Assembly (NCBI GenBank): GCA_019454165.1
Contig: CP075367.1
Location: 579,971-643,970, forward strand
Direction of reading: 5' to 3'
DNA: 64,000 nucleotides
DNA from: Anaerolineales bacterium
GTDB lineage: Bacteria; Chloroflexota; Anaerolineae; Anaerolineales; UBA11579
Position 1 is the first letter of the stretch. Each line of letters opens with the position of its first letter. This document shows, one piece after another, positions 261-13,148 of the stretch. The translations under genes were made by a program, and so were the position numbers. The notes beneath the pieces were generated by a model, which saw nothing but the letters and a program-made list of their open reading frames with translations, was not told the DNA's origin and searched no databases.

Positions 261-3200
261 TTATTGCTCAAAGCCTGAATTCTTGAACTTCAGCGTTTTT
301 GCATTCTCACTTACGGTTCTAACTACATCTTCAGAAAAGCCTTCTGGGCTCTCTGCGGAGATTTCCAAAGAAATCGTTATCTTGGAACCAACCAGCCCCG
401 CTAGATGAGACACAACCTCGTCAGCGATTTGACCCGCGGCGCGCCCAAGGCGTGTGGGGTCCAAGTCTATGGAGCCGTGGAAACGACGAAGGCTTTGCGG
501 CTTAGAGGGAGTAACAGCAGCTTCCGTACCCTCGCCCACAGCATGGCTTTCCCAGCCTTGCCCGCCTGTGTAGACGCTGTCACTGGGCGCCTCGTGGGCC
601 TCGCTTTGCCTTTGCGCCTTCACCGCTGCGGGTTTAATGATGACGCTTGCCCCGTCAAAAGCAACCGACGGCAAGGCGCCGGCGACCAAGCCGACATAGT
701 AGCCATCTGCTCTTACCGCAGAGGCATAACCAAAATAATCAGTCCAGGTGATTGAAGCTACGCCTTGGCGGATTGCTTCGGCGAGTACATTTTGATCACG
801 CAAGCGCGGCAGGTAAAGATACTGTGCCAGATATTCCCAAAGTTGTTTTACGGAAAGATGGTTCGCGTTTTTCCATAAGTAACGATCCAGCTCAATCAAT
901 AGGGTTGCTGCTGCCCAATCTTTGATTAAATCCTGGCTGTGGAGCAGCTTGGCAGACACCCGCTCCACCAGATGCTCTCCGCCTTGCAGACGGGTAAAGC
1001 TCCACTCATATTCCTTGTCCGAGGCGGATTTCTTCTCTTTGTGTCTGGGAAGCAGCGCGTGGCAATAGGTTTCCAGTATCTGCGCCTGCACGATTTCGGT
1101 GTAGTTCTTGCGTTTTGCTTCGACTTCATGCACTTGAGAGGTGGTCAGGTTGCGGTCGTCCCTCTCTGTGTAGATTTGCTCCCAGGCTTTCCAGAGACTT
1201 ACAGCCTGGCTCAATTCCTGATAGCGCTCGTTATCCGCGGCCAGGAAGATGAGCATGTTGCGGTATAGGCGCGGGCTGTTGTCTCGCTGAGTCAGGACAT
1301 CGTCGGCGAAGGCCACGGCTGGGCTGCCACCGTTGTCCTTGCGGTGCGGGTGCGCCGGCCCAATGATGACCAGGCGGCAACTGTCTTCGTCGGGCACATC
1401 GCCGCTGCCCTTGGGGTCGGCGTGTACGCCGGCGAATTCACCCCACTTACGCTTGGCGATGATATCGCGCAGGCGGCGGCTGACTTCGTCCTCAATTTCG
1501 TGCGGGCGTGTGCGAATGCGTTCGGCGATGTTGGCGGCCTCGCGGCCAATGGTTGGCCGGGTATCAAAGTAATACCGCCCGGATTCCTGATAAAGATAGG
1601 TTAGCTCTTCAGAAAGGCGACGCAACGCGTCGCCAAAAGCGCTGACATTCTCCCCGGGCTGAACACAACCCAGCTTGATGTTCAGTTCATCCAAGCCGCG
1701 CACATTCTGCTCAGTAACCGAAGGCGCGCCACCAAAAAAGACCGTGCGCGCTACGCGCCGAGAGGCCGAATAGCGGTTGAGATTGGGGTTATCACGATCC
1801 AACGCCAAGGGGCGGCTTTGCATGCCGTCGATGTCGCGGTCCAGCACGGCGCTCCAGCCAGTGGGCAGATAGTCTGAGAGCGTGGTGCGCACGGTGTTGT
1901 TGTCCAGCGGCACGAAACCAGGCATGATCAGCGCGCCGGCGTCGCCGCGATCCCAAAGCTCGTAGATGATGGCCGCCATGAGGCGCAACACGCCGCGGGT
2001 CTGTTGGAAGCGCTCAAGGGTAGACCAGTCCAAATAGAGCCGGTCAAAGAATTCCGGATGGATTGGGTATGAATTCTTCATCCGTTCCAGATAATCTCCC
2101 TGGCGGGTTTCTGCCGGAAAATCTGCGCGGTTGGCAGCGTACATGTCGCTGAATTCGCGGCAGACTGCATCTCGCGCCGCCAGGTCTTTGATGGGCTCAA
2201 ACAGGCGGCGGCGTACGATTTCAAAGCGCTCGTCACCGCTGGCGGGCTGCCAGGCGACGGCTACACGGACAAAAACGTTTTCGATGTGCTCCAACGCCTT
2301 TTCACCAAAGGGGCCGCCTTTTTCGTGGTCAGAAGCGGGCAGCGAGGCCACCAGCATGCAGTTGGGCACGGTCTTGACGGCCTCGGTGAGGGCTTGCACA
2401 AAGGTGATGTTGGCTTCAAAGGTGCCTGCCGGCAGGTTTTCCTTGCCATAGATTTGGCGGGCAAAACCGACCCACTCATCGATCAAAATTAATGCAGGGC
2501 TGTAGGTCTTGAGCAGCTCGGTGAGCTTTTCCGAGCCAGGGCTGACCCCATCGGCATCTTCTTTGGCGATTAATGCAAAGGCTTCTTTGGCCTTGCCAGC
2601 CGCGGCGCCCAATTGCCAGGCAAGCTCACCCCACAGGGTATTGACCTGGGCGCCGTCTGCCTTTGTGCTGCCGCTGGGGCTGATTTGGGTGCCCACCAGC
2701 ACGACGCGGTTGGCGGCGGGGATGACTGCTTTATCAGCAGCAACGTCCTGGGGAACAATTTTCTCAATATCGGGCACTTGGTTTGGCTGCAATTGCCCGC
2801 CGAACAAGTGATACAGGGCCAGCATGGAGTGGGTCTTGCCGCCGCCGAAGTTGGTCTTGAGCTGCACCACCGGGTCGCCGCCCAGCTGGCCCAGGCGAGA
2901 CCAGGCGCGTTTGAGCAGGGCCGAGAGGCCCTCGGTGAAGTAGGTGCGGTTGAAGAATTCAGCCGGGTCCAGGTATTCTTTTTCTGCCCGGCCAGTGATG
3001 ACCTGGAACAAGTCAGCGGCGAATTCGGCCTGCTGGTAGCGGCCGGCGGCCACGTCTGGGTGCGGAGTGGCGATTTGACGCCAGGGGGTCAGCGCGGTTT
3101 TGCCGCCCAGGTTGGTGGCATCCACCATTTGCTTCTTGCGCTTTTTGGACTCTTCTTCCAGGCTGCGGCGCAGGAGTGCATCGTGCAGCTGCTTGACTTC

Positions 3201-3614
3201 ATCGGCGCCGGTGTTGGCGGTCACTTGCAGCAGGCGCACAATTGTATCCAGGGCGCGCAGCGTGTCTTCTGTGGAGAAGGCGCTTTGGTGCGCCCAACTG
3301 TTGCGGATGTCGTTGATTTCATGCACATAGCTGCGCGTCACCCCGCCCAGCTGGTTGTTAAACACGGTGGGCCAGTTGGTAAGAAAGAGGGTGATGACAA
3401 ACTGCACGTCTGCGCCTTTGCGCACGCGCTCTTCATAGCTGCCCTTGGCTTCTTTGACGCGCAGGCCCTTGGTATCTCGGAAGCAGGGCTCCACGCCTTT
3501 TTGCCACCACTGGTCTTTGTAGGCAGTCTGAAGCTCCTGAATTAGGTAGGGGAGTTCGTTTTCCAGCAGGATGTCCAGCGCCTGCCCAATGAGGTCTTTG
3601 TTGCTCTTCGCCAT
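261..3614 (-). CDS. Swt1-like HEPN domain fused to DUF499-type P-loop ATPase (BrxC/PglY-like large ATPase)
   Basis: ATG at 3614 with AGGAGG 4 nt upstream, overlapping the TAG of the upstream gene. N-terminal HEINDIRNSWAHQ carries the HEPN Rx4H motif. LKTNFGGGKTHSMLALYHLF is the DUF499 Walker A region. The 34 extra codons up to 3716 overlap the upstream gene and were dropped. Confidence 0.8.
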   Translation of the reverse strand: MAKSNKDLIGQALDILLENELPYLIQELQTAYKDQWWQKGVEPCFRDTKGLRVKEAKGSYEERVRKGADVQFVITLFLTNWPTVFNNQLGGVTRSYVHEINDIRNSWAHQSAFSTEDTLRALDTIVRLLQVTANTGADEVKQLHDALLRRSLEEESKKRKKQMVDATNLGGKTALTPWRQIATPHPDVAAGRYQQAEFAADLFQVITGRAEKEYLDPAEFFNRTYFTEGLSALLKRAWSRLGQLGGDPVVQLKTNFGGGKTHSMLALYHLFGGQLQPNQVPDIEKIVPQDVAADKAVIPAANRVVLVGTQISPSGSTKADGAQVNTLWGELAWQLGAAAGKAKEAFALIAKEDADGVSPGSEKLTELLKTYSPALILIDEWVGFARQIYGKENLPAGTFEANITFVQALTEAVKTVPNCMLVASLPASDHEKGGPFGEKALEHIENVFVRVAVAWQPASGDERFEIVRRRLFEPIKDLAARDAVCREFSDMYAANRADFPAETRQGDYLERMKNSYPIHPEFFDRLYLDWSTLERFQQTRGVLRLMAAIIYELWDRGDAGALIMPGFVPLDNNTVRTTLSDYLPTGWSAVLDRDIDGMQSRPLALDRDNPNLNRYSASRRVARTVFFGGAPSVTEQNVRGLDELNIKLGCVQPGENVSAFGDALRRLSEELTYLYQESGRYYFDTRPTIGREAANIAERIRTRPHEIEDEVSRRLRDIIAKRKWGEFAGVHADPKGSGDVPDEDSCRLVIIGPAHPHRKDNGGSPAVAFADDVLTQRDNSPRLYRNMLIFLAADNERYQELSQAVSLWKAWEQIYTERDDRNLTTSQVHEVEAKRKNYTEIVQAQILETYCHALLPRHKEKKSASDKEYEWSFTRLQGGEHLVERVSAKLLHSQDLIKDWAAATLLIELDRYLWKNANHLSVKQLWEYLAQYLYLPRLRDQNVLAEAIRQGVASITWTDYFGYASAVRADGYYVGLVAGALPSVAFDGASVIIKPAAVKAQRQSEAHEAPSDSVYTGGQGWESHAVGEGTEAAVTPSKPQSLRRFHGSIDLDPTRLGRAAGQIADEVVSHLAGLVGSKITISLEISAESPEGFSEDVVRTVSENAKTLKFKNSGFEQ

Positions 3615-3622
3615 CTCTCCTC

Positions 3623-6511
3623 CTAAAACAGGGCGGGCGTTTGCTTGGCGGCCATCTCTTTGAGCCGTGGCCAGGCGGCCACCAGCATGTTGTACCCCAG
3701 CGCCTCGCCCGCCCAACTCTTGCGCTCACAAATGGAGTACAGGCGATAGGCCAGGTCTTTGCCCGGCTCGGCCAGGGCGCCCAGCCCGGTCAGCAGGGCG
3801 GCAGCGGCCGCCTCGCCGTCGGTCTCCAGCGCGCGGATGAGGTAGTGGCAAGCCTCCCAGACCGAGAGCTGCTTGTCGCTGTGCGGGGTCCAATCCGCAT
3901 CCAATTCTTCACGCGGCAGCAGGCGCACCTTGCCAGCACGAGACTGGAGGATACCGGAGTGTGCCAGCCCCTCGATACTAGTGTTTTTGGCTTTGCTCAG
4001 CGTTTCGGCCACGCCGAATTCCGCGGCGTTGTGGCCAAACTGCTCGAACCAGGTTAGCGCCCAGCGCGTCTCGGCGTCAAAATCGCCTTCCTGTTCGGCC
4101 AAGTATTGATCCAGAACCTGGTTAATTAAACCCAAAGCCGTGCGCACGCTCATTTTTGAGCCGTCAGATTCCAGCACAGCGTTGTAGCGGCTAAAGATTG
4201 CCATTCCGGGGCCGATGGCAGCCTGGGCAAAGTCAACCGGAGCGACGTTGCCAAATCTAAGCTCCTGCAATGCTTTTGGCAAAACCTGTTCAAGAAGGAT
4301 AAGGAAATCTCGTCTGACAATGGTGTCGCGCTCATCAGTTTTTGGTCTGCAAACCAAGACAATTGATGAGGCTAATATGTTTGCCCCACCAATTTGAAGC
4401 GCTTTGCTCGCTAATTCCGTGCGCATTGGCCAGGTTCCTGTAATCTCAAACTGTGCATCCAGAAGACCCTGAAGCATTGTTTCCCAGCCGGTTGATGCGG
4501 TCACTGTTTCAGATCTGCTTTCAGTGGTGCTGTCCACTGATTCCGTTTGTTTAAACGCATAAAAGACTGATGTTGGGACAAGAAGCGAGCTGGCCTTAGA
4601 CATGCTCTTAAATGTTTCAAAAAGACCAACTTCAAAGAATTCCTTTGCCCTTTCTCGATTTCCATTAAATCGATAAGGCGTAGCAACGAGTTCCTCGCTC
4701 TTTGGAACCATCAAAGTAGTCAATAAAGAACTAAAACTTGAGTGGAGCATCTGCCTAAGCCATATATAAAAGAAATCTGATAGGTCTGCATATCCAATAT
4801 TGTCGTAGTATGGTGGATCAGTTGCTAGTACAAGCTTGTTACCGTTCGATAACTTTCGAGCATCTCGCTGCTCAGAGAAACCGGGGACACCAATGGGGAG
4901 GCCGTCAATAACACGAAGAATCCAATTGACTGCGCCTGCATAGCTACCCATTGTTTCAAACGGATTTACTTCACAAAAATCCCAAACCATAGGCAGTGCA
5001 TGTCTAGCAAAAGTCCCTCTCAAACTTTCAGAACCTACATCCCAGCTAGCCAATGATGAGTTCCTGTCAAGGAGTTTGCTAGCCGCAAACGCCAAATACA
5101 CGGCCACCGCATCCGCATACGCTTGGGCGCCGCTGCCGCCGGCCTCCAGGCCCAGGCCGTCGTCTTTGAGGCCGGCCTGGCGGGCGTGTTGCAGCGCCAG
5201 GCTGCGGGCCTCGCCCACCAGGTCGCTGAAGGTGGTGAGGGCCACTAGTTGGCGATCGGTGAAGAGGTCTGCGTGCTTTGTCATTCCGTATAGCTGGACA
5301 CGGAAGCCAAGGGCCTTTTCAGGCAGGTCCGTTTCTGGTTTCCACGCGGGTACAGCGCTTTTAGCAACGTCTTCATGTTCTTGAAGTGGCGAGAAATACA
5401 CACGTCCCTTAGGCCCATCTGCGACTGCCGCCAACAACTGAGCGTTCATTCGCCCCGCTTTGCCTTCGTCTCTAATGTGATCAAAGGGTACTGGGCTGCC
5501 ACAAGCTACGCATGATGCACCAGTGCGTTCAACGGTTCCCTTCGGGGCCTTGCCTTGCCCGGTTTTTACAATAAAACGAACTCGCTCCCCTTTAGAGCCT
5601 TTAGTTGGCTCTATTTCTACCCATGCTTGTCTGTCCTTCTTTTTGCTTAGCTCAAAAGAGCGCACCAAGGGCATTTGCACACCGCAAGCTGGATTGGGGC
5701 ACTTCACCGTGCGCGCCCACAGCCAGGCAATTACGGTCAGCTCTTCGCCAGCTTTGATGCCCTGCTCTTTTAAATCGGGTCGCTCAGCCAGTATGGCGGC
5801 CGATATCTTTACCTTGGGGTAAAGCTGGCCAATGCGCTCTTCTGCCTGTTGGCGCATCCAGTTGCCGTAATAGCGCACATCTTCGGCCAAACCCTGGGCG
5901 CCTTTCCACTCTCGGCCCTTGAACATGTCAGATTGGTCGCCTTGCCCAGCTTCTTCCACCGGATGCACTGGGGGCAGGTTAGCGAACTTGGGCGGGATTT
6001 CAATCAGAGCCTTGTTGATGAGCACTGCCACCGGGTTCAAGTCGCTGGCGTAGGCGCGCAGGCCCAGGCGTTGGGCTTCCAGCGGGATGGAGCCGCCGCC
6101 GGCAAAGGGGTCCAGCACGGGTGGGGCCTGGGTGGCCAGGAATTCTTCGATGGCGTGTTTGCCCACCGGCATTTCCAGGCCCAGGTTACGGGCCACACTG
6201 CGGGCAATTTCCAGCTTGGCCGCATCCAGCACTTCTTCGTTGTTGCTGTTCTCCCATTTGACCAGTTCCTCAATCAAGTTGAACAGGCGCTGGCGTTCGG
6301 CTTTCTGTTTCTCCTCATCCTGTATGTACTCACTGGGATCGTCCACCAGGGAAGAGAAGAGCACCGCCCGGCAGGCGGCCAGCGGTCGTCGCGCCCACCA
6401 CAGATGCAAGGTGCTTGGGTGCCCATGGCGGATGGACTTCTCTCGCGCGGCCTCTTTGTTGATTGCCTCAAGTGGCAGGGCGACTTCGATGAGCTTTTTA
6501 GGGTAGGTCAC
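3623..6511 (-). CDS. DUF1156-type DNA methyltransferase (DPPY, probable N6-adenine/N4-cytosine class)
   Basis: N-terminus KKLIEVALPLEAINKEAAREKSIRHGHPSTLHLWWARRPLAACRAV is the DUF1156 signature. It also has a SAM-pocket-like DPFAGGGSIPLEAQRLG and catalytic motif IV LATDPPYYDNIGY. It abuts both neighbouring genes. Confidence 0.85.
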   Translation of the reverse strand: MTYPKKLIEVALPLEAINKEAAREKSIRHGHPSTLHLWWARRPLAACRAVLFSSLVDDPSEYIQDEEKQKAERQRLFNLIEELVKWENSNNEEVLDAAKLEIARSVARNLGLEMPVGKHAIEEFLATQAPPVLDPFAGGGSIPLEAQRLGLRAYASDLNPVAVLINKALIEIPPKFANLPPVHPVEEAGQGDQSDMFKGREWKGAQGLAEDVRYYGNWMRQQAEERIGQLYPKVKISAAILAERPDLKEQGIKAGEELTVIAWLWARTVKCPNPACGVQMPLVRSFELSKKKDRQAWVEIEPTKGSKGERVRFIVKTGQGKAPKGTVERTGASCVACGSPVPFDHIRDEGKAGRMNAQLLAAVADGPKGRVYFSPLQEHEDVAKSAVPAWKPETDLPEKALGFRVQLYGMTKHADLFTDRQLVALTTFSDLVGEARSLALQHARQAGLKDDGLGLEAGGSGAQAYADAVAVYLAFAASKLLDRNSSLASWDVGSESLRGTFARHALPMVWDFCEVNPFETMGSYAGAVNWILRVIDGLPIGVPGFSEQRDARKLSNGNKLVLATDPPYYDNIGYADLSDFFYIWLRQMLHSSFSSLLTTLMVPKSEELVATPYRFNGNRERAKEFFEVGLFETFKSMSKASSLLVPTSVFYAFKQTESVDSTTESRSETVTASTGWETMLQGLLDAQFEITGTWPMRTELASKALQIGGANILASSIVLVCRPKTDERDTIVRRDFLILLEQVLPKALQELRFGNVAPVDFAQAAIGPGMAIFSRYNAVLESDGSKMSVRTALGLINQVLDQYLAEQEGDFDAETRWALTWFEQFGHNAAEFGVAETLSKAKNTSIEGLAHSGILQSRAGKVRLLPREELDADWTPHSDKQLSVWEACHYLIRALETDGEAAAAALLTGLGALAEPGKDLAYRLYSICERKSWAGEALGYNMLVAAWPRLKEMAAKQTPALF

Positions 6512-7528
6512 TTAGAAATGCATCTCCCGGGATGTGGTTGCCTTTAAATCAGCGCTTCCGAGTGGATGGGTTGTTGAATCAAAGAAGCTGACATTGGCAT
6601 GCGGAAAGAGACCGCAATAATACGCTTTTTTGTTCAGAGTGTCTTCGTTACTTCGCGGAAAAATAGAAACGGCCAAAGTCGGATTACCCCAGCTACAAAT
6701 CGCATCAATGATATGTTTGTCGCTTTCACTTAGTGATTGGCCAAAAATGACAAGAGATTTATTGAATTGGGAAAACTTCTGATGGGCAAAAGTCAGATAA
6801 TCAGATGAAGCAATAGTCTCGATTTTTTGCTGAGCGTTTCCTTCGGAAACAAACAGCGGCTCGGCGCCATTGAAGGGTCGCCCAAACAACTCAAGAAGTG
6901 TATATCCTCCTTCGTTCCGACGTTTTAGTGTCCCGCCCAGACGGGTTCGATACAAGTGTAGTCCCCCATGGAGATACAGGACTGCTTTTAAGCCATCAGG
7001 CGCCGAAGCCCTGAGCGAATCAAATCGTTGCTCTCTAAAAAAATCTGTAAAACCTTCGCCTTCTTGTTGCATGATCGACCAGTATGTAAGCAGGTCATAA
7101 TTAGTTGAAAAAATATCGTTATATTCGAACAAGGCAGCCCGGATGGCCTCAAAAATTTCTTGCCAGACCCTATCCCACGGTATGTGCACGGAATGGACTG
7201 CCTGAATGAGCGCCTGTTTTATTCTGTCGTAGCTGGCGGATAACGAAGCCTGTTCTATGTGATGAATCATGTTCACCTGCTGGGCAATTGAGAGCAAGTG
7301 CAGAACCTGTTCAAAGTTGTTGTAGGAGTTAAAACTCTCGAAAAGTTTTATGTCATCTTCGTTCAGTGGATCTTTGATAAGTTCAGAACGTGCTCGCTCG
7401 AATATTGAGGAGTAACTAAATCTATCTGAAACGGCAATGCTTGCTCCGTTTCCGATAAGGATGCCCTCCCAGCCGTTGCCTGCTATCTCTTCCCACGTCA
7501 CTAGGCGATCGTCAATTACGCAATTCAT
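6512..7528 (-). CDS. DUF4917 / SIR2-like (SIR2_2-type) protein
   Basis: Ordered motifs ILIGNGASIAVS, IFSTNYDLLTYW, VLYLHGGLHLY and PLFVSEGNAQQK fit my memory of DUF4917 and of SIR2_2 (GxGxS ... NYD ... LHG). ATG 7528 lies 17 nt inside the helicase 3' end, and the stop abuts the methylase ATG. Low GC: line 7081-7140 hand-counts to 21/60. Confidence 0.7.
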   Translation of the reverse strand: MNCVIDDRLVTWEEIAGNGWEGILIGNGASIAVSDRFSYSSIFERARSELIKDPLNEDDIKLFESFNSYNNFEQVLHLLSIAQQVNMIHHIEQASLSASYDRIKQALIQAVHSVHIPWDRVWQEIFEAIRAALFEYNDIFSTNYDLLTYWSIMQQEGEGFTDFFREQRFDSLRASAPDGLKAVLYLHGGLHLYRTRLGGTLKRRNEGGYTLLELFGRPFNGAEPLFVSEGNAQQKIETIASSDYLTFAHQKFSQFNKSLVIFGQSLSESDKHIIDAICSWGNPTLAVSIFPRSNEDTLNKKAYYCGLFPHANVSFFDSTTHPLGSADLKATTSREMHF

Positions 7529-10500
7529 TTTTTGCCCCCAGACTAACTAAACTCTGAATCTTATAATTCACGCTGGTAGCAGCGAAATCCGGCTCGCGTT
7601 CAAAGGGTGGGCGGAAGTACAGTCGCTCGCGCAGCACCGGCTGGTCGGCTACAAAATCAACTTTGACCACGGCCAGGATGTATTTCTCCGGCTGGTTGAG
7701 ACCGGCCAGGATTTCGTTTCGGGTCAGGGTGACGGTGGTGGCCGCAGCAATACGGCCCTTCACCTCAATGAAGCGCAGGCGGCCTTGGCCATTGCGGCTT
7801 TCAATGTCCCAACCCAGGTTTTGGGCGCTCACGTCTATGGGTTCGTGGCCCAGGCTGCGCTCATAATCCATCACGGCCTGCATGGCGGCCTGCTCCACGG
7901 CGCGGCGCTGAACGCCAAACAGCTCGTCGCCGCTTTCTTCCGCTTCCTGTGCAAGCCCGAGTGTATCCAGCAGGCCGCGCGGCACCACCAGCGCGCCGCC
8001 CAGCAGCCGCGGCTTCTGGGCCACTAGTTGGCGCTCCTGCTCCAGCTCTTCCATGCGCCGCTCCAGCCGGGCCTGCAGGTCGTTGGCGCGGCGGCGGGCC
8101 TGCTCAGAATTCAGCTTGGCATTTCGTTTGCCAGCCTGTTCCTGGGCCTTCAGGTCTTCAGCCCGGCGGTCCCAGAACTGAATTTCTTTGGTCAGGCGCT
8201 CTTTGACCGCCGCGGCTGTCTTGCGCACCATTTCTTGGCGGCGGGCGGAAGTCTCCTCAAAATGGGATGGCACCATGCTGGCTACCGCATACTCAATCGC
8301 CCGCTCTTCAAAGTTGTTCTGCAGCCAGTCTTTGGAAAGCTGGCTACGAACCGCATCGAGCCACTCGGACGGGATGGGTTGGTAATCCAGAAAAGGCGCT
8401 GCCCCTGCGGCGCGGGCCGCGCCAGCCGCATCCATCTCCACAAACTGCATCTGGCGCGAAATCACGCGGCGCTCCCCGTTGGAGTCCGGGCGTCCATCCT
8501 GGATGCTGTGCTCAAGGTAAAACAAGGCGCGCGGGCCCTCACTGGGGTCGTTGGGGTCTAACAGCAGCGCGCCGCGCTTGAGCAAGTCTCCGTAACGCTC
8601 CAGAAGAATATCCTGCACAGCTTCTACCAAAGCATGGCCGGGGGTGAGGAACTCGGCGGTGGGCTTGCCGGCAATATCTATATCTTCTTTGTGGAAGGTG
8701 GCGCGCTCGTAGCGCTCCAGCACTTGGCCGCGGCCCAGCAGGCGGGCGCGCTCGCGCACGGCCCCGGGTACATGCGTGATTTCATAGCGGCGCGGTTCGC
8801 GCGGGTGCATCGAGCCACCCAGGATTTCAAAGGCGGCGGCGAAGAAGGAGGCCACGAAGTGAGGCTGCAGCCGCTTGGCGGCAGCCCGCTCAAAATCTTC
8901 GCGAATGTTCTGGATGCGGGTGGTGTCCAGCACATCGCCGGCCAGCAGTTGGTCTTCCAGCAGGGCGCGCACCTTGTTTTGGTCAGTGATGTTGTCCACG
9001 GCTTCAAACAGGCGGGCGCGCACATCCTCTCTGTCTCCGTAGCGCACAGCCTGCACCAACAGCTCGCGCAAACTCTGCTCGCGGAACAATTCCCCCAAGA
9101 CGTCGAAGACAGCGTCGTCGTTTAGCGCCCGGCGCTGCTCTTCGATCTTCTCGAGCAGGCGGGAATATACATAGCCCTCACGGGTTTCGTTGGCCACCAG
9201 GTTCCACAGGTGGCAAACTTCTCGCTGACCAATGCGGTGGATACGGCCAAAGCGTTGCTCCAGGCGGGTAGGGTTCCAGGGCAGATCATAGTTCACCATC
9301 AGGTGAGCGCGCTGCAAATTGATACCCTCACCGGCAGCGTCAGTAGCCACCAGGATGGAGACATCCTTGTCCTGCACAAAGGCGGACTGTACGCGGCGGC
9401 GCTCGTCGCGCAGCATGCCGCCGTGGATAGCGACCACCGCCTCGGGCTTGCCGAGCAGAGTGCGGATGCGGTCGACCAGGTAGTTCAGTGTATCGCGGTG
9501 TTCGGTGAAGATCACCAGCTTGCGCCGCAGCCCAGAGCTATCAAAAAGCTCGTTCTGTTCCTGCAGCAATCGGGAGAGCTCAGCCCATTTGCGGTCATCC
9601 TTGCTGCGGCGCACTTTGTCCGCCATGTTTTCCAGGTCTTTGAGGATGAAAATTTCGGCTTGCAATTCGTCAATGGTGCGAGCTGAAGTGGCCATATCGC
9701 TTACTTCAGTTTCCAGTGCTTCCAATTCCTCGTCGGGAATTTCATCGATGTTTTCGAGTTCCTCGGTGTCTAGATTCACCCAATCTGCTAGTCCGGCGCG
9801 CGCCTGTGCGCCACGCTGGAGCAACGTTTCCTCTCTCAGCTTATCTTCCAAGCGCTGGCGACGACGTTGCAACGACTGGTAAATGGCCTCAGGGCTGGAG
9901 GCCAGGCGGCGCTGCAGGATCATCAAGGCAAAGCCAACTGTGCCGCGCTTCTCCTTGTCCAACTGCTCGGCCCGATTGAACTCTTCTCGGACGTAATTGG
10001 TCACCTGTTCGTAGAGGATCGCCTCCAGATCGGAGAGCTTGTAGTTGACTGTGTACGCCCGCCGCTCCGGGAACAGCCGCGTGCCATCAAAGCGCAGCAG
10101 CTTTTCCTTCACCATCCGGCGCATCAAATCCTGCGCGTCTACTGAATGGTGGCCTTCACGATACTTTCCTTCGAATCTGTCCGGGTCAAGCAGGGCCATA
10201 AAAAGTTGAAAATCTTCCTCTTTACCGTTATGAGGAGTCGCTGTCATGAGTAACAGGTGACGAGTTTGCTGTGAGAGCGCCTGCCCAAGCCTGTAGCGCT
10301 TAGTGTAGGAAATCTCCCCAGCGAACACAGAGGCGGAAAGCTTGTGCGCCTCGTCAAATATCACTAAGTCCCACTCGGCCCGCTTAAGCATCTCTTCATA
10401 GTCTGCGTTACGGCTAAGCCAGTCCAGGCGGGCAATGCCCAGGGGAACGTCTGTGAAGACATTGCCATCTCGAGCTGCCTCAAAACGTGCGTTAGTGAAG

Positions 10501-11039
10501 ATTTCAAACTCCAGGCGAAATTTCTGGTAAAGCTCGTCTTGCCACTGTTCAGTTAAATTACCAGGTGCAACAATCAGACAGCGTTCCAAGTCGCCGCGCA
10601 GCATGAGTTCTTTTACATATAGACCAGCCATAATGGTCTTGCCTGCACCAGGATCGTCTGCAAGCAGGTAGCGCAGCGGTTGTCTGGTGAGCATGTGCTC
10701 ATAGACTGCTGAAATTTGGTGGGGCAAGGGGTCGATGATGGACAAGTGAACCGCCATCCACGGGTCGAACAAATAGGCCATTCGAATACGCGTAGCTTCG
10801 GAGGCCAGACGGAACAAATCGCCCTGGCTATCAAAAGCCCATTGTGTCCCCGGCTCAAAGATGGTCAGCGCATGCTCTTTTGAGCGAAAAAGCAGCTCTG
10901 TATGAAGGCCGCCTTGCTGGTCGCGGTAGACGACCTCCAGGGTATCGCCTAACCACTTCGCATCTATTATGGTGACCTTCTGTTTAGGGAGCAGGCCCTC
11001 AACCACCGATCCGTACTTTATTTCTTCTAACTTAGCCAC
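7512..11039 (-). CDS. SNF2/DEAH-type helicase with C-terminal PD-(D/E)xK nuclease-like domain (DUF3883-like)
   Basis: Motif I LLADDPGAGKTIMAG, motif II FDEAHKL, motif III LLMTATPHNG and motif VI-like QRFGRIHRIGQ. A long coiled-coil region follows, then a C-terminal GWDIES...RFIEVKGR core (D...E-x-K). GTG start at 11039. Confidence 0.85.
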   Translation of the reverse strand: MAKLEEIKYGSVVEGLLPKQKVTIIDAKWLGDTLEVVYRDQQGGLHTELLFRSKEHALTIFEPGTQWAFDSQGDLFRLASEATRIRMAYLFDPWMAVHLSIIDPLPHQISAVYEHMLTRQPLRYLLADDPGAGKTIMAGLYVKELMLRGDLERCLIVAPGNLTEQWQDELYQKFRLEFEIFTNARFEAARDGNVFTDVPLGIARLDWLSRNADYEEMLKRAEWDLVIFDEAHKLSASVFAGEISYTKRYRLGQALSQQTRHLLLMTATPHNGKEEDFQLFMALLDPDRFEGKYREGHHSVDAQDLMRRMVKEKLLRFDGTRLFPERRAYTVNYKLSDLEAILYEQVTNYVREEFNRAEQLDKEKRGTVGFALMILQRRLASSPEAIYQSLQRRRQRLEDKLREETLLQRGAQARAGLADWVNLDTEELENIDEIPDEELEALETEVSDMATSARTIDELQAEIFILKDLENMADKVRRSKDDRKWAELSRLLQEQNELFDSSGLRRKLVIFTEHRDTLNYLVDRIRTLLGKPEAVVAIHGGMLRDERRRVQSAFVQDKDVSILVATDAAGEGINLQRAHLMVNYDLPWNPTRLEQRFGRIHRIGQREVCHLWNLVANETREGYVYSRLLEKIEEQRRALNDDAVFDVLGELFREQSLRELLVQAVRYGDREDVRARLFEAVDNITDQNKVRALLEDQLLAGDVLDTTRIQNIREDFERAAAKRLQPHFVASFFAAAFEILGGSMHPREPRRYEITHVPGAVRERARLLGRGQVLERYERATFHKEDIDIAGKPTAEFLTPGHALVEAVQDILLERYGDLLKRGALLLDPNDPSEGPRALFYLEHSIQDGRPDSNGERRVISRQMQFVEMDAAGAARAAGAAPFLDYQPIPSEWLDAVRSQLSKDWLQNNFEERAIEYAVASMVPSHFEETSARRQEMVRKTAAAVKERLTKEIQFWDRRAEDLKAQEQAGKRNAKLNSEQARRRANDLQARLERRMEELEQERQLVAQKPRLLGGALVVPRGLLDTLGLAQEAEESGDELFGVQRRAVEQAAMQAVMDYERSLGHEPIDVSAQNLGWDIESRNGQGRLRFIEVKGRIAAATTVTLTRNEILAGLNQPEKYILAVVKVDFVADQPVLRERLYFRPPFEREPDFAATSVNYKIQSLVSLGAKNELRN

Positions 11040-11157: not shown

Positions 11158-11958
11158 CTAGAAACTGAAAAGCAGGAGGCTGGTCGCTACGACAATCACA
11201 ATGGAGTAGCCAACTATAAAGGTTGTTGGCACCCAAATTTCCTTTGATGTGAACGAGCGATATTTTTTCTTCCCAAAGCCCAGAGCGTCCCACTCGGCAG
11301 TATAGATCGCGATCTTTAAGTAGCGTTCTATTGTGTTAATAACCTTGAACTTCCCCGTATTTAATTGGCCAAACGAAGTTATCAGGCTTCTCCACGCTCC
11401 ACACAAGATCGCGCCGACTATGCCCAAAATTGCTATCCATGAAGCTCTGGCGACTTGACCATCTGAGTTTTGTAAAACAAAGCCAGCAACTGTGATAAGC
11501 GCACCATTTAGAGTTAAGAAAAATGAGTTTACAGTTTGCCTGCGGTTGATAAGATTCTCAGAGCTTTCGACCATTACTTTGTAAAGTTCAAGTGCCTGGG
11601 TAACATCCTTGTCGTTTTCTAACAAACCATTTGGAAACAGAACGTCAAGGAATCTATCTTCTGAAGGTTGCTTGTTTTCTATCAGCAGGGCTGCCCTTTG
11701 AATGGCCTCTACATACAGATCGTCCTCCCTTCGAGTTTCTGTATCTAGTGCACTATATTCAACCAAGGCTTCGTGCGCTTTATTGCTTCGCATCATCCAT
11801 GCTGACCAAGCGTCATGGACATCGCTCGGGGAAACCGCCTGCCCCTTGGCGCGCAAGAGAATTGCATAGAGACGAAGTAGGTCGTCGGCATCCTGGCGCG
11901 GTACTTTATTCGCTGGTATTTGCTTCCGGATCTCTTCGGCTATATCATCAAGATACAT
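11158..11958 (-). CDS. Membrane protein: N-terminal soluble helical domain plus 3 predicted TM helices (candidate effector partner of the TIR-like protein)
   Basis: Hydrophobic stretches FFLTLNGALITVAGFVL, WIAILGIVGAILCGAWRSLI and IWVPTTFIVGYSIVIVVATSLLLF follow a roughly 140-aa polar N-terminal domain. ATG 11958 directly follows the TAA (11961-11959) of the upstream TIR-like gene. Low GC: 23/60 in line 11521-11580. Confidence 0.65.
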   Translation of the reverse strand: MYLDDIAEEIRKQIPANKVPRQDADDLLRLYAILLRAKGQAVSPSDVHDAWSAWMMRSNKAHEALVEYSALDTETRREDDLYVEAIQRAALLIENKQPSEDRFLDVLFPNGLLENDKDVTQALELYKVMVESSENLINRRQTVNSFFLTLNGALITVAGFVLQNSDGQVARASWIAILGIVGAILCGAWRSLITSFGQLNTGKFKVINTIERYLKIAIYTAEWDALGFGKKKYRSFTSKEIWVPTTFIVGYSIVIVVATSLLLFSF

Positions 11959-12342
11959 TTATCCCCAGCTACTAAGCCAAGTGATAATGTCGGCGAAGTT
12001 CCAACGAATAACATTTGCGCTTGGCAACCCTTGAGGAATGATATGTGTTTCGTCGCGATTAATTTGGATGCCAAACATGTAGTTGCTCTGTCTAATGGTC
12101 TCTGCAATCTCCCACAAAACAGCCTCCGAACGATAAGTGGTTGCACCTATCAATACAATGGTCCCCTTGGTTTGGGCTATTCGTTTTGCGCACTCAGTCT
12201 TCCAGGCGAAATCAAAAGGATCCTTTACAGAGTAATCATAGAATTCAATTTCATTGTTTTTGTCTTTGGCTTGTTGCACCAAGAAATCACGAGCCCATTT
12301 ATCTTCCATTTCAAAACTTATAAAAGCGCGTGGTTTTGCCAT
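11959..12342 (-). CDS. TIR-like domain protein (DUF1863/MTH538-type, ThsB-like)
   Basis: PRAFISFEMEDKWARDFL (beta1 plus acidic motif) and GTIVLIGATTYRSEAVLWEIAETI (conserved W-E) match the DUF1863 TIR-like pattern that includes Thoeris ThsB (from memory). AGGAGG-type SD sits upstream of ATG 12342. Confidence 0.7.
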   Translation of the reverse strand: MAKPRAFISFEMEDKWARDFLVQQAKDKNNEIEFYDYSVKDPFDFAWKTECAKRIAQTKGTIVLIGATTYRSEAVLWEIAETIRQSNYMFGIQINRDETHIIPQGLPSANVIRWNFADIITWLSSWG

Positions 12343-12479
12343 ATTGCCTCCTCGTTGGCAAGTAGAATTTCCTTATTATAGTAGTAAGCTGCTTGTCTCA
12401 GCTCAGATTGTAAAGATGACAACTGTAATCGGCTTGCCGGAGTGGATGGAACTACTGATTTTATACAATAGACTAGTCA

Positions 12480-13148
12480 ATGACAACAAGGGGGTTTCAA
12501 TGTGCTGGGTGTGGGGTTAAAGGCGCGATTTGGTGCAAAAGTTGTCAAAATCAGACTGTGAGAATAGGGCTGCTCTGTTGCAAAAGATGCGGCTATCCAT
12601 CTGAGAGACATATTTGCAAGTGGTGCTGTTATGAAACGCCCTGGTTTGACAGTGCCAGGTCTTGGGCTCGCTATAGTGGTGAGCTTCGTAAAGCATTGGT
12701 TTACCTGAAGACACAAGAAAGTGTCGATCTAGCGTCCGCATTGGCTGCCCATTTGGCGGAAGTGCTTTTACCTAGCTGGGCAATTGATTTAGTAGTTCCC
12801 ATTCCACTGTCCGCAACCCGGCTGCGTATGCGCGGCTTCAATCAAGCAGAATTGTTGGCACAAGCTTTTGCTCAGCTAGTACAACTGCCTATCGCAATTA
12901 AAGCGCTAATGCGGATTCGTGATACTAAGTTTCAGCGAACCCTGGGACGTGCAGATAGAAAGCAGAACGTGAGACAAGCCTTCAGGGCTGACGGGAGATC
13001 ATTTGCTGGAATGAAGATACTAATAGTCGATGATATTTTCGTAACTGGCGCAACGATTAATTCGGCTTCTAGGGCAATAAAGAAAGCTGGAGGACACTCT
13101 GTGTTCGCAATTACGGTTGCGCGAAGTCTGTTAAACACACCTGCATGA
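12480..13148 (+). CDS. comFC: ComF-family protein (double zinc ribbon plus phosphoribosyltransferase domain)
   Basis: N-terminal Cys pairs CAGCG...CKSC and CKRCG...CKWCC. PRTase PRPP loop ILIVDDIFVTGATINS near the C-terminus. TACAAT lies 10 nt upstream of the ATG. Confidence 0.75.
   Translation: MTTRGFQCAGCGVKGAIWCKSCQNQTVRIGLLCCKRCGYPSERHICKWCCYETPWFDSARSWARYSGELRKALVYLKTQESVDLASALAAHLAEVLLPSWAIDLVVPIPLSATRLRMRGFNQAELLAQAFAQLVQLPIAIKALMRIRDTKFQRTLGRADRKQNVRQAFRADGRSFAGMKILIVDDIFVTGATINSASRAIKKAGGHSVFAITVARSLLNTPA

Follow-up and report, generated by a model that had tools for sequence, protein, structure and literature searches.

The window analysed here, a stretch of 64,000 nucleotides (nt) from an Anaerolineales bacterium (contig CP075367.1, positions 579,971 to 643,970 of the forward strand), carries on its minus strand two directly abutting genes, one for a 127-aa ThsB-like TIR protein and one for a 266-aa membrane protein that combines a DUF7701 and an 8xMP domain. 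We interpret the pair as a Thoeris-type abortive-infection cassette, with a probability of about 0.68, in which infection would cause the TIR protein to make a messenger derived from ADP-ribose (ADPR), the messenger would gate an oligomeric 8xMP assembly in the membrane, and the membrane would then fail. The features of the pair, in window positions and in the order of transcription, are listed below; ORF stands for open reading frame and AF2 for the AlphaFold2 model.

12458-12486, minus strand: promoter-like sequence TTGTCA-17-TAAAAT, about 115 nt 5' of the TIR start codon (consensus scan)
12347-12353, minus strand: Shine-Dalgarno sequence GAGGAGG, spaced 4 nt from the TIR ATG (sequence inspection)
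11959-12342, minus strand: thsB-like gene, 127 aa, a TIR domain without additional domain (ORF with Pfam and PADLOC)
12109-12111, minus strand: GAG codon of Glu78 in VLWEIAE, the predicted catalytic glutamate of the TIR (alignment)
11158-11958, minus strand: putative effector gene, 266-aa DUF7701 plus 8xMP membrane protein (ORF with Pfam)
11689-11955, minus strand: DUF7701 domain, residues 2-90, predicted all-alpha cytoplasmic module (PF24792, E 2.9e-32)
11185-11592, minus strand: 8xMP domain, residues 123-258 (PF24838, E 1.9e-36)
11470-11532, minus strand: hydrophobic helix 1, residues ~143-163 (Kyte-Doolittle; AF2 helix 116-164)
11380-11442, minus strand: hydrophobic helix 2, residues ~173-193 (Kyte-Doolittle; AF2 helix 168-214)
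11161-11235, minus strand: hydrophobic helix 3, residues ~242-266 (Kyte-Doolittle; AF2 helix 237-265)

Judged by its profile matches, the 127-aa protein is a ThsB-type TIR protein that retains the predicted catalytic glutamate. It scored 51.5 bits against the Pfam family ThsB_TIR (PF08937, E 1.4e-13, cut-off 21.2) and also matched the PADLOC models ThsB (E 7.1e-8) and PDC-M50B (E 5.1e-8), while a profile of 27 members of the TIR family matched the solved TIR structures of BcTir (8FZ9, 1.8e-11) and of Bacillus cereus ThsB (9B7D/6LHY, ~1e-7). A first-pass annotation of this DNA had described a 127-aa TIR-like protein with the motifs AFISFEMED and LWEIAE; both are present, the latter within VLWEIAE, and the description is borne out by the ORF, the PF08937 score and the profile matches to solved ThsB. 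All 27 aligned TIRs, distant members included, have Glu78 in the second motif, and this residue is aligned with the catalytic glutamate in 'RWVRYEIMKS' of B. cereus ThsB (9B7D). The promoter-like site upstream of the gene is weak evidence, as the count of such sites in the region by consensus scan does not rise above the shuffled expectation.

The stop codon of the TIR gene (TAA, 11961-11959) is followed with zero spacer by the start codon of the 266-aa ORF (ATG, 11958-11956), just as the first-pass annotation had read from the letters. The encoded partner begins with DUF7701, which scored 111.2 bits (cut-off 27) and covers profile positions 2-90 of 91, and continues with 8xMP ("octameric membrane protein"), which scored 125.3 bits (cut-off 30) over profile positions 1-134 of 136. 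The 8xMP part is laid out as an amphipathic helix, a hairpin of the transmembrane (TM) helices TM1 and TM2, a basic cytoplasmic helix and TM3. Hydropathy and the AF2 model confirm the polar helical N-domain and three hydrophobic helices that had been described from the sequence, the polar N-terminal part being entirely helical in the model. Since the loop between helices 2 and 3 (residues 194-241) holds nine K/R, it is suggested to be cytoplasmic, and the protein to have its N-terminus inside and its C-terminus outside. Such a predicted topology would match the layout of known signal-gated membrane effectors.

The DUF7701 part (residues 1-112) was modeled as all-alpha with a predicted local distance difference test score (pLDDT) of 89 and a predicted template modeling score (pTM) of 0.78. 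In the effector family alignment its residues Y31, K38, G39, D46, H48, D49, W51, W54 and H62, along with R36, are invariant, a mix that would suit a nucleotide-binding site. Foldseek repeatedly placed RyR repeats (6uhs, 4etv, 9l92, 4ett) among the non-significant matches of this model, and a homolog in locus L020 has a weak, non-significant Pfam RyR match (E 0.067). With probabilities of 0.44-0.69 and E > 1, the likeness to RyR repeats is kept as a lead and not as a result. A Pfam scan of the 266-aa protein found no Macro, SLOG or SIR2 domain, in agreement with what the first-pass annotation had said of the partner, and no known sensor domain either. Literature searches on the names and Pfam accessions of the two families found nothing relevant, nor a paper on an octameric RipA structure (most matches to RipA concerned RIPA lysis buffer), and in the literature retrieved both 8xMP and DUF7701 are family names without an assigned function.

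Comparison across genomes indicates that the TIR and membrane genes form a tightly conserved two-gene module across many phyla. Scanning genomes with the alignment of the effector family yielded 31 loci in phyla that include Actinomycetota, Acidobacteriota, Gemmatimonadota, Pseudomonadota, Bacteroidota, Verrucomicrobiota, Planctomycetota and Spirochaetota, and 25 of these had upstream sequence. All but one of the 25 carry a TIR of ~128 aa that ends a few nucleotides 5' of the effector start (24 loci, of which 23 reach E <= 1e-56 and the last 1e-33), with junctions of 0-6 nt and a 6-nt spacer in most other genomes. The first-pass annotation had named lack of conservation elsewhere as one of the results that would speak against it, and what was found is a pair kept together from phylum to phylum. 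The membrane protein itself has 322 homologs spread over phyla, mostly at ~55% identity, with a mean column identity of 66%.

Two kinds of damaged copy were seen. Among the genome loci with upstream sequence, L021 (6010-6672) alone lacks a TIR; its effector ORF is truncated at the N-terminus, beginning at about residue 62 of DUF7701, and is probably a decayed copy. In L080 and L081 (2501-5216), the fused DUF7701-8xMP gene is split after about residue 70 by ~1.7 kb with an ORF for a transposase-like protein of 495 aa. Neither a group II intron nor another RNA family was recognized by Rfam in this insertion, and the gene appears to be a copy disrupted by an insertion sequence (IS).

The association with TIR extends to the 8xMP family at large. 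The domain was found in 2168 representative clusters (clustered at 50% identity) at E <= 1e-3, and among seven representatives with readable surroundings that were sampled for context, all seven had a TIR, which was adjacent in five, fused in one and present as a partial upstream TIR in one. A metagenome scan with the N-domain (DUF7701) alone, from which 80 loci were kept, found the fused DUF7701-8xMP gene, with DUF7701 N-terminal, in 30; a TIR lies directly 5' in 29 of these, and the contig of the remaining one is too short. Thirty-five loci have instead a stand-alone 8xMP gene (~165 aa) immediately followed by a stand-alone DUF7701 gene (~95 aa), often overlapping. Upstream of these split genes a TIR is present in 19 cases, the contig is too short in 10, and none was detected in six. 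The remaining loci are mostly cut or interrupted copies. Stop and start codons overlap in the split operons of L089, L099, L106, L108, L115, L118, L121 and others, which run TIR, 8xMP (~165 aa), DUF7701 (~95 aa); this is a permuted order, as DUF7701 precedes 8xMP in the fused protein. Because of this pattern of fusion and fission, DUF7701 and 8xMP are indicated to act together as predicted partners.

Other arrangements of 8xMP were also observed. The proteins of L026 (5653-6588), L029 (5608-6606) and L042 (331-1356) have, at the place of DUF7701 in the window protein, a TIR-like domain that is joined N-terminally to 8xMP and retains the WEIE glutamate; the fusion gene is directly preceded by a separate ThsB-type TIR gene in L026 and L029. 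One short 8xMP gene follows several TIR genes in L031 (96-1415; three TIR genes in or around the locus) and L039 (102-1488; two TIR genes), which suggests that a single membrane effector may be served by more than one signal maker; the short protein that follows three TIR genes is 169 aa long. In L040 (2-277), 8xMP is preceded by a TIR with the pattern '...YRRWIQKEIDIA...VGW..SIVEAIR'. The effectors that accompany this TIR cluster in Table S1 of a recent survey (Yirmiya et al. 2025, bioRxiv 10.64898/2025.12.03.692087) bear the label '3TM', and the '3TM' class may thus also contain 8xMP proteins.

The same survey of TIR operons lists 29 putative Thoeris types, of which types V to XI were validated. 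Its type V consists of ThsB and ThsF, a 3-TM 'DUF2270' protein modeled as a ring, which in one system is activated by 3' cyclic ADPR (3'cADPR) (10.64898/2025.12.03.692087). Under the label 'DUF2270 - Type V', its Table S1 has three entries (2515435456, 2516918698 and 2653083036, cluster 2635319349) for TIRs that share 64-75% identity with the window TIR, some of them 72-75%, and the window TIR family is therefore already catalogued as putative Thoeris in a public table. The authors warn that labels in this table derive from cluster representatives and are noisy (10.64898/2025.12.03.692087). DUF2270 (PF10028) gave no match to the window effector at E <= 1, and none to any of 56 diverse 8xMP-domain proteins at E <= 0.1. 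We retrieved the validated ThsF of Bacillus thuringiensis DAR 81934 (141 aa) beside its ThsB, and its only Pfam match is 8xMP, full-length and sub-threshold (E 0.012; 15.9 bits, where the cut-off is 30). Of 29 ThsF homologs, three have some similarity to 8xMP (best E 0.012) and three to DUF2270 (best E 0.033), all below threshold. No ThsF was found by a tblastn search of plasmids with the B. thuringiensis ThsB, which led to TIRs in other contexts (SIR2, Macro, extra TIRs). On these profile comparisons, 'DUF2270 - Type V' appears to be a loose label, one that covers an effector family neither DUF2270 nor demonstrably ThsF.

The first-pass annotation had proposed a Thoeris-like module of a TIR and a membrane effector, and on the strength of the ThsB-type TIR and the conserved pairing this part stands. 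Its description of the partner as 'novel' and 'unassigned' does not, given that DUF7701 and 8xMP are named Pfam families, that homologs ~52-58% identical are called 'RipA family octameric membrane protein' in RefSeq, and that related TIRs are already in Table S1. Its further suggestion, that TIR and partner are a distinct signal-gated, membrane-disrupting pair, may yet hold. The Thoeris-like reading is sound, but the category to which the pair belongs is a known one.

The proposed mechanism is as follows. Upon phage infection, the 127-aa TIR protein would convert NAD+ to an ADP-ribose-derived second messenger. The co-translated partner would sense this messenger as a ring-shaped homo-oligomer of 8xMP in the inner membrane, its DUF7701 domains facing the cytoplasm. 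The messenger would bind to DUF7701, in pockets between the protomers or at both places and thereby switch the ring, which would breach or depolarize the membrane, and the cell would stop growing or die before the phage cycle is complete. We infer here the production and the identity of the signal, the oligomer, the part that binds, the disruption of the membrane and the phage phenotype. A more specific version, which we hold only tentatively and would bet against at modest odds, is that DUF7701 plus 8xMP is a distinct class of Thoeris effector and not a variant of ThsF, namely a TIR-dedicated octameric 8xMP ring gated through DUF7701, which would bind or perhaps degrade the nucleotide made by the TIR. 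This nucleotide need not be 3'cADPR, because the nearest characterized TIR relatives make N7-cADPR.

Several observations weigh against the main reading, that of a Thoeris-type abortive-infection cassette. Neither a sequence search nor a profile search found a protein similar to the membrane partner in the PDB, and Foldseek against the PDB found no significant fold for the full AF2 model (best E 0.4) or for the DUF7701 model (residues 1-112; 11623-11958, minus strand; best E 1.3). The octamer or ring of 8xMP is drawn solely from the Pfam and NCBI family names. Many TIR-8xMP pairs are without DUF7701, so this domain would be dispensable for the basic circuit. Alignment of ThsF with 8xMP by hhalign gave probabilities of 0.3% and 1.7% with narrow and diverse 8xMP alignments, respectively, and reciprocal hidden Markov model (HMM) searches reached at most 10.6-14.5 bits, compared to 6.4-8.3 bits for reversed-sequence controls. 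With such hhalign values, and HMM scores barely over the reversed controls, the transfer of function or signal from ThsF was rejected. The neighbors of the pair in other genomes are mostly housekeeping genes (72 neighboring proteins from 30 genomes), with only two OLD/GajA-like genes and one C5 methylase among them, and we do not claim enrichment in defense islands outside this locus. Finally, the authors of the survey warn that the TIR of an unverified type may be an NAD+-depleting effector and not a signal maker (10.64898/2025.12.03.692087).

In the window, the pair lies next to a known defense system. The first-pass annotation had placed it beside an 'RM-like' (restriction-modification-like) operon; the adjacency holds, and PADLOC identifies the operon as a complete Hma system spanning 261-11039 on the minus strand, with one additional gene between HmaA and HmaB.

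7512-11039, minus strand: HmaA, SNF2 helicase with NOV_C domain (PADLOC E = 0)
6512-7528, minus strand: DUF4917 gene, PADLOC PDC-S21, 338 aa, SIR2-like with weak AbiH similarity, between HmaA and HmaB
3623-6511, minus strand: HmaB, DUF1156 methylase (PADLOC E = 0)
261-3716, minus strand: HmaC, DUF499 ATPase (PADLOC E = 0)

The HmaC ORF as listed overlaps HmaB by 94 nt, the PADLOC HmaC model aligns only from residue 208, and the true HmaC start is probably further downstream than listed. The DUF4917 gene overlaps the end of HmaA by 17 nt, has a guanine-cytosine (GC) content of 46-47% compared to ~60%, and is missing from a syntenic Anaerolineales contig (L036). Because of its low GC and its absence from the otherwise syntenic L036, it looks like a candidate single-gene defense gene inserted in another defense system. 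We considered this SIR2-like gene (6512-7528) as a ThsA-like partner of the TIR and rejected it, since it is missing from L036 and from every other locus.

A divergent ComF-like gene lies upstream of the TIR gene. In L036 the order is ComF-like, TIR, membrane protein, HmaA, HmaB, HmaC, without DUF4917 and with the same zero-spacer junction of the TIR. Defense context is thus seen at single loci, with Hma beside the pair here and in L036 and a type I RM operon around L037. In the 31 genome loci, all of other lineages, BLASTP found no homolog of HmaA, HmaC or DUF4917 beside the pair, and the sole match was a marginal one of 52 residues to HmaB. Because of this, and because the neighbors elsewhere are mostly housekeeping genes, the TIR-membrane pair is best described, on comparative grounds, as a self-contained cassette predicted to be independent of Hma. 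Its GC content is 43-47% compared to 53-64% in the flanks, in line with the first-pass annotation, which had called both genes low in GC. The foreign GC and the changing neighborhoods fit a mobile stand-alone module.

An alternative that we consider unlikely is that the roles are reversed, with the TIR killing the cell through an NADase activity that exhausts NAD+ and the membrane protein serving as a sensor or anchor that responds to a membrane event (genome injection, holin action or loss of potential) by activating or clustering the TIR. The TIR has just 127 aa and no sensor domain, and something else may therefore do the sensing, but verified ThsB proteins can likewise be hardly more than a TIR domain. 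The 8xMP proteins with an N-terminal fused TIR-like domain and WEIE glutamate resemble a membrane-anchored TIR, and the preprint allows such a mode of working for unverified TIR systems (10.64898/2025.12.03.692087). The nearest characterized TIRs, in the same cluster, are nevertheless signal-making type IV ThsB proteins, and two or three TIR genes with a single 8xMP gene fit several signal makers and one effector better than several effectors. To our knowledge, the small multi-TM proteins of Thoeris, CBASS and Pycsar operons are effectors in all studied cases, which also counts against reversed roles. The small 3-TM protein ThsF likewise acts as the effector in type V (10.64898/2025.12.03.692087).

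Two further explanations would take the pair out of independent defense, and we regard both as very improbable. The one that fares slightly better is a housekeeping or envelope role like that of RipA in Francisella, an inner-membrane homo-oligomer tied to LpxA and lipid A synthesis. The RefSeq name of the homologs, 'RipA family octameric membrane protein', points this way, as do the mostly housekeeping neighbors in other genomes, and Francisella RipA, a homo-oligomeric protein of the cytoplasmic membrane with two cytoplasmic domains, would fit the topology of 8xMP (PMC4322802). The RefSeq name presumably refers to this protein; the link is read from the name alone, however, and the obligatory link to ThsB-type TIR genes, the foreign GC of the cassette, its patchy spread over phyla at ~55% identity and the existence of the IS-disrupted copy (L080/L081) all argue against an envelope function. 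The least probable explanation is that the pair is an accessory of the neighboring Hma system. The pair shares its strand with HmaA, lies 118 nt upstream of it and is not separated from it by a terminator-like site, and the order TIR, membrane protein, HmaA, HmaB, HmaC is repeated in the related contig L036. Against this stand the BLASTP results from the 31 loci of other lineages given above, a GC content of the pair that differs sharply from that of the Hma genes, and the pair's own ribosome-binding site and promoter-like site.

TIR signaling with membrane effectors is an established theme, and the locus does not open a new category. What is new is more modest, a putative effector class of DUF7701 plus 8xMP, neither DUF2270 nor demonstrably ThsF, with fusion and fission between its two parts, and the 8xMP family behind it is very large, with a TIR gene or domain beside every case sampled. 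The locus raises the questions of which TIR product would gate the predicted pore, where this product binds, and what DUF7701 adds given that TIR and 8xMP also pair without it. If the proposed cassette is real, a characterized effector, and possibly a new pair of signal and sensor, would be added to bacterial TIR immunity, and the function of RipA-like proteins might be explained. If the NCBI name is also right, the Francisella virulence factor RipA, long puzzling, would be a domesticated member of a family of immune pores.

Among known systems, type V Thoeris is alike in arrangement, as a two-gene operon of a TIR and a small 3-TM effector, and the window effector shares with ThsF the succession of amphipathic helix, TM hairpin, cytoplasmic stretch and TM3. 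ThsF is modeled as a ring-shaped homo-oligomer with pockets between protomers; the window effector has the three hydrophobic helices, and the family name is the sole source for its ring. Those ThsF proteins that have been validated (B. thuringiensis DAR 81934 and Bacillus sp. 1NLA3E) differ in having ~135-141 aa and no DUF7701. Since the validated type V TIRs are unrelated to the window TIR (E 0.76), 3'cADPR cannot be assumed as the signal of the window system.

The nearest characterized TIR is instead the type IV Thoeris ThsB of Pseudomonas sp. 1-7 (family HMM E 1e-19; BLASTP 25% identity, E 3e-13). This protein, which shares TIR cluster 2635319349 with the window TIR family, makes N7-cADPR, but because the identity is only 25%, the product of the window TIR cannot be predicted from it. 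The type IV effector is a soluble caspase-like protease, whereas the partner here is a membrane protein. A similar contrast holds for BcTir/BcTpr of B. cereus (PDB 8FZ9), the best match of the TIR among solved structures, which is likewise encoded in a two-gene TIR operon with anti-phage activity; its partner is a TPR protein. Unlike types I and II Thoeris, with their SIR2-SLOG and Macro-TM effectors, the 266-aa partner has no SIR2, SLOG or Macro domain.

The window effector has no significant match to SLATT, PycTM or CBASS 2TM. Its similarity to PADLOC PycTM is weak and sub-threshold (E 0.006 with the whole protein and 0.0016 with just the domain), SLATT_1 and SLATT_5 each reached E ~0.03 in one of 56 relatives, and the CBASS 2TM match is also weak and sub-threshold. 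Compared to SLATT, PycTM and type II effectors, it has three TM helices in place of two, no Macro domain and another cytoplasmic module. Type VII Thoeris (TIR plus SLATT, cADPR), type II (TIR plus Macro-TM, His-ADPR), PycTM and CBASS 2TM nevertheless have a common logic, in which a nucleotide messenger gates a small multi-TM effector. The generic elements of Thoeris, a ThsB-type TIR with a catalytic-type glutamate and a conserved effector gene in the same operon, are both found here.

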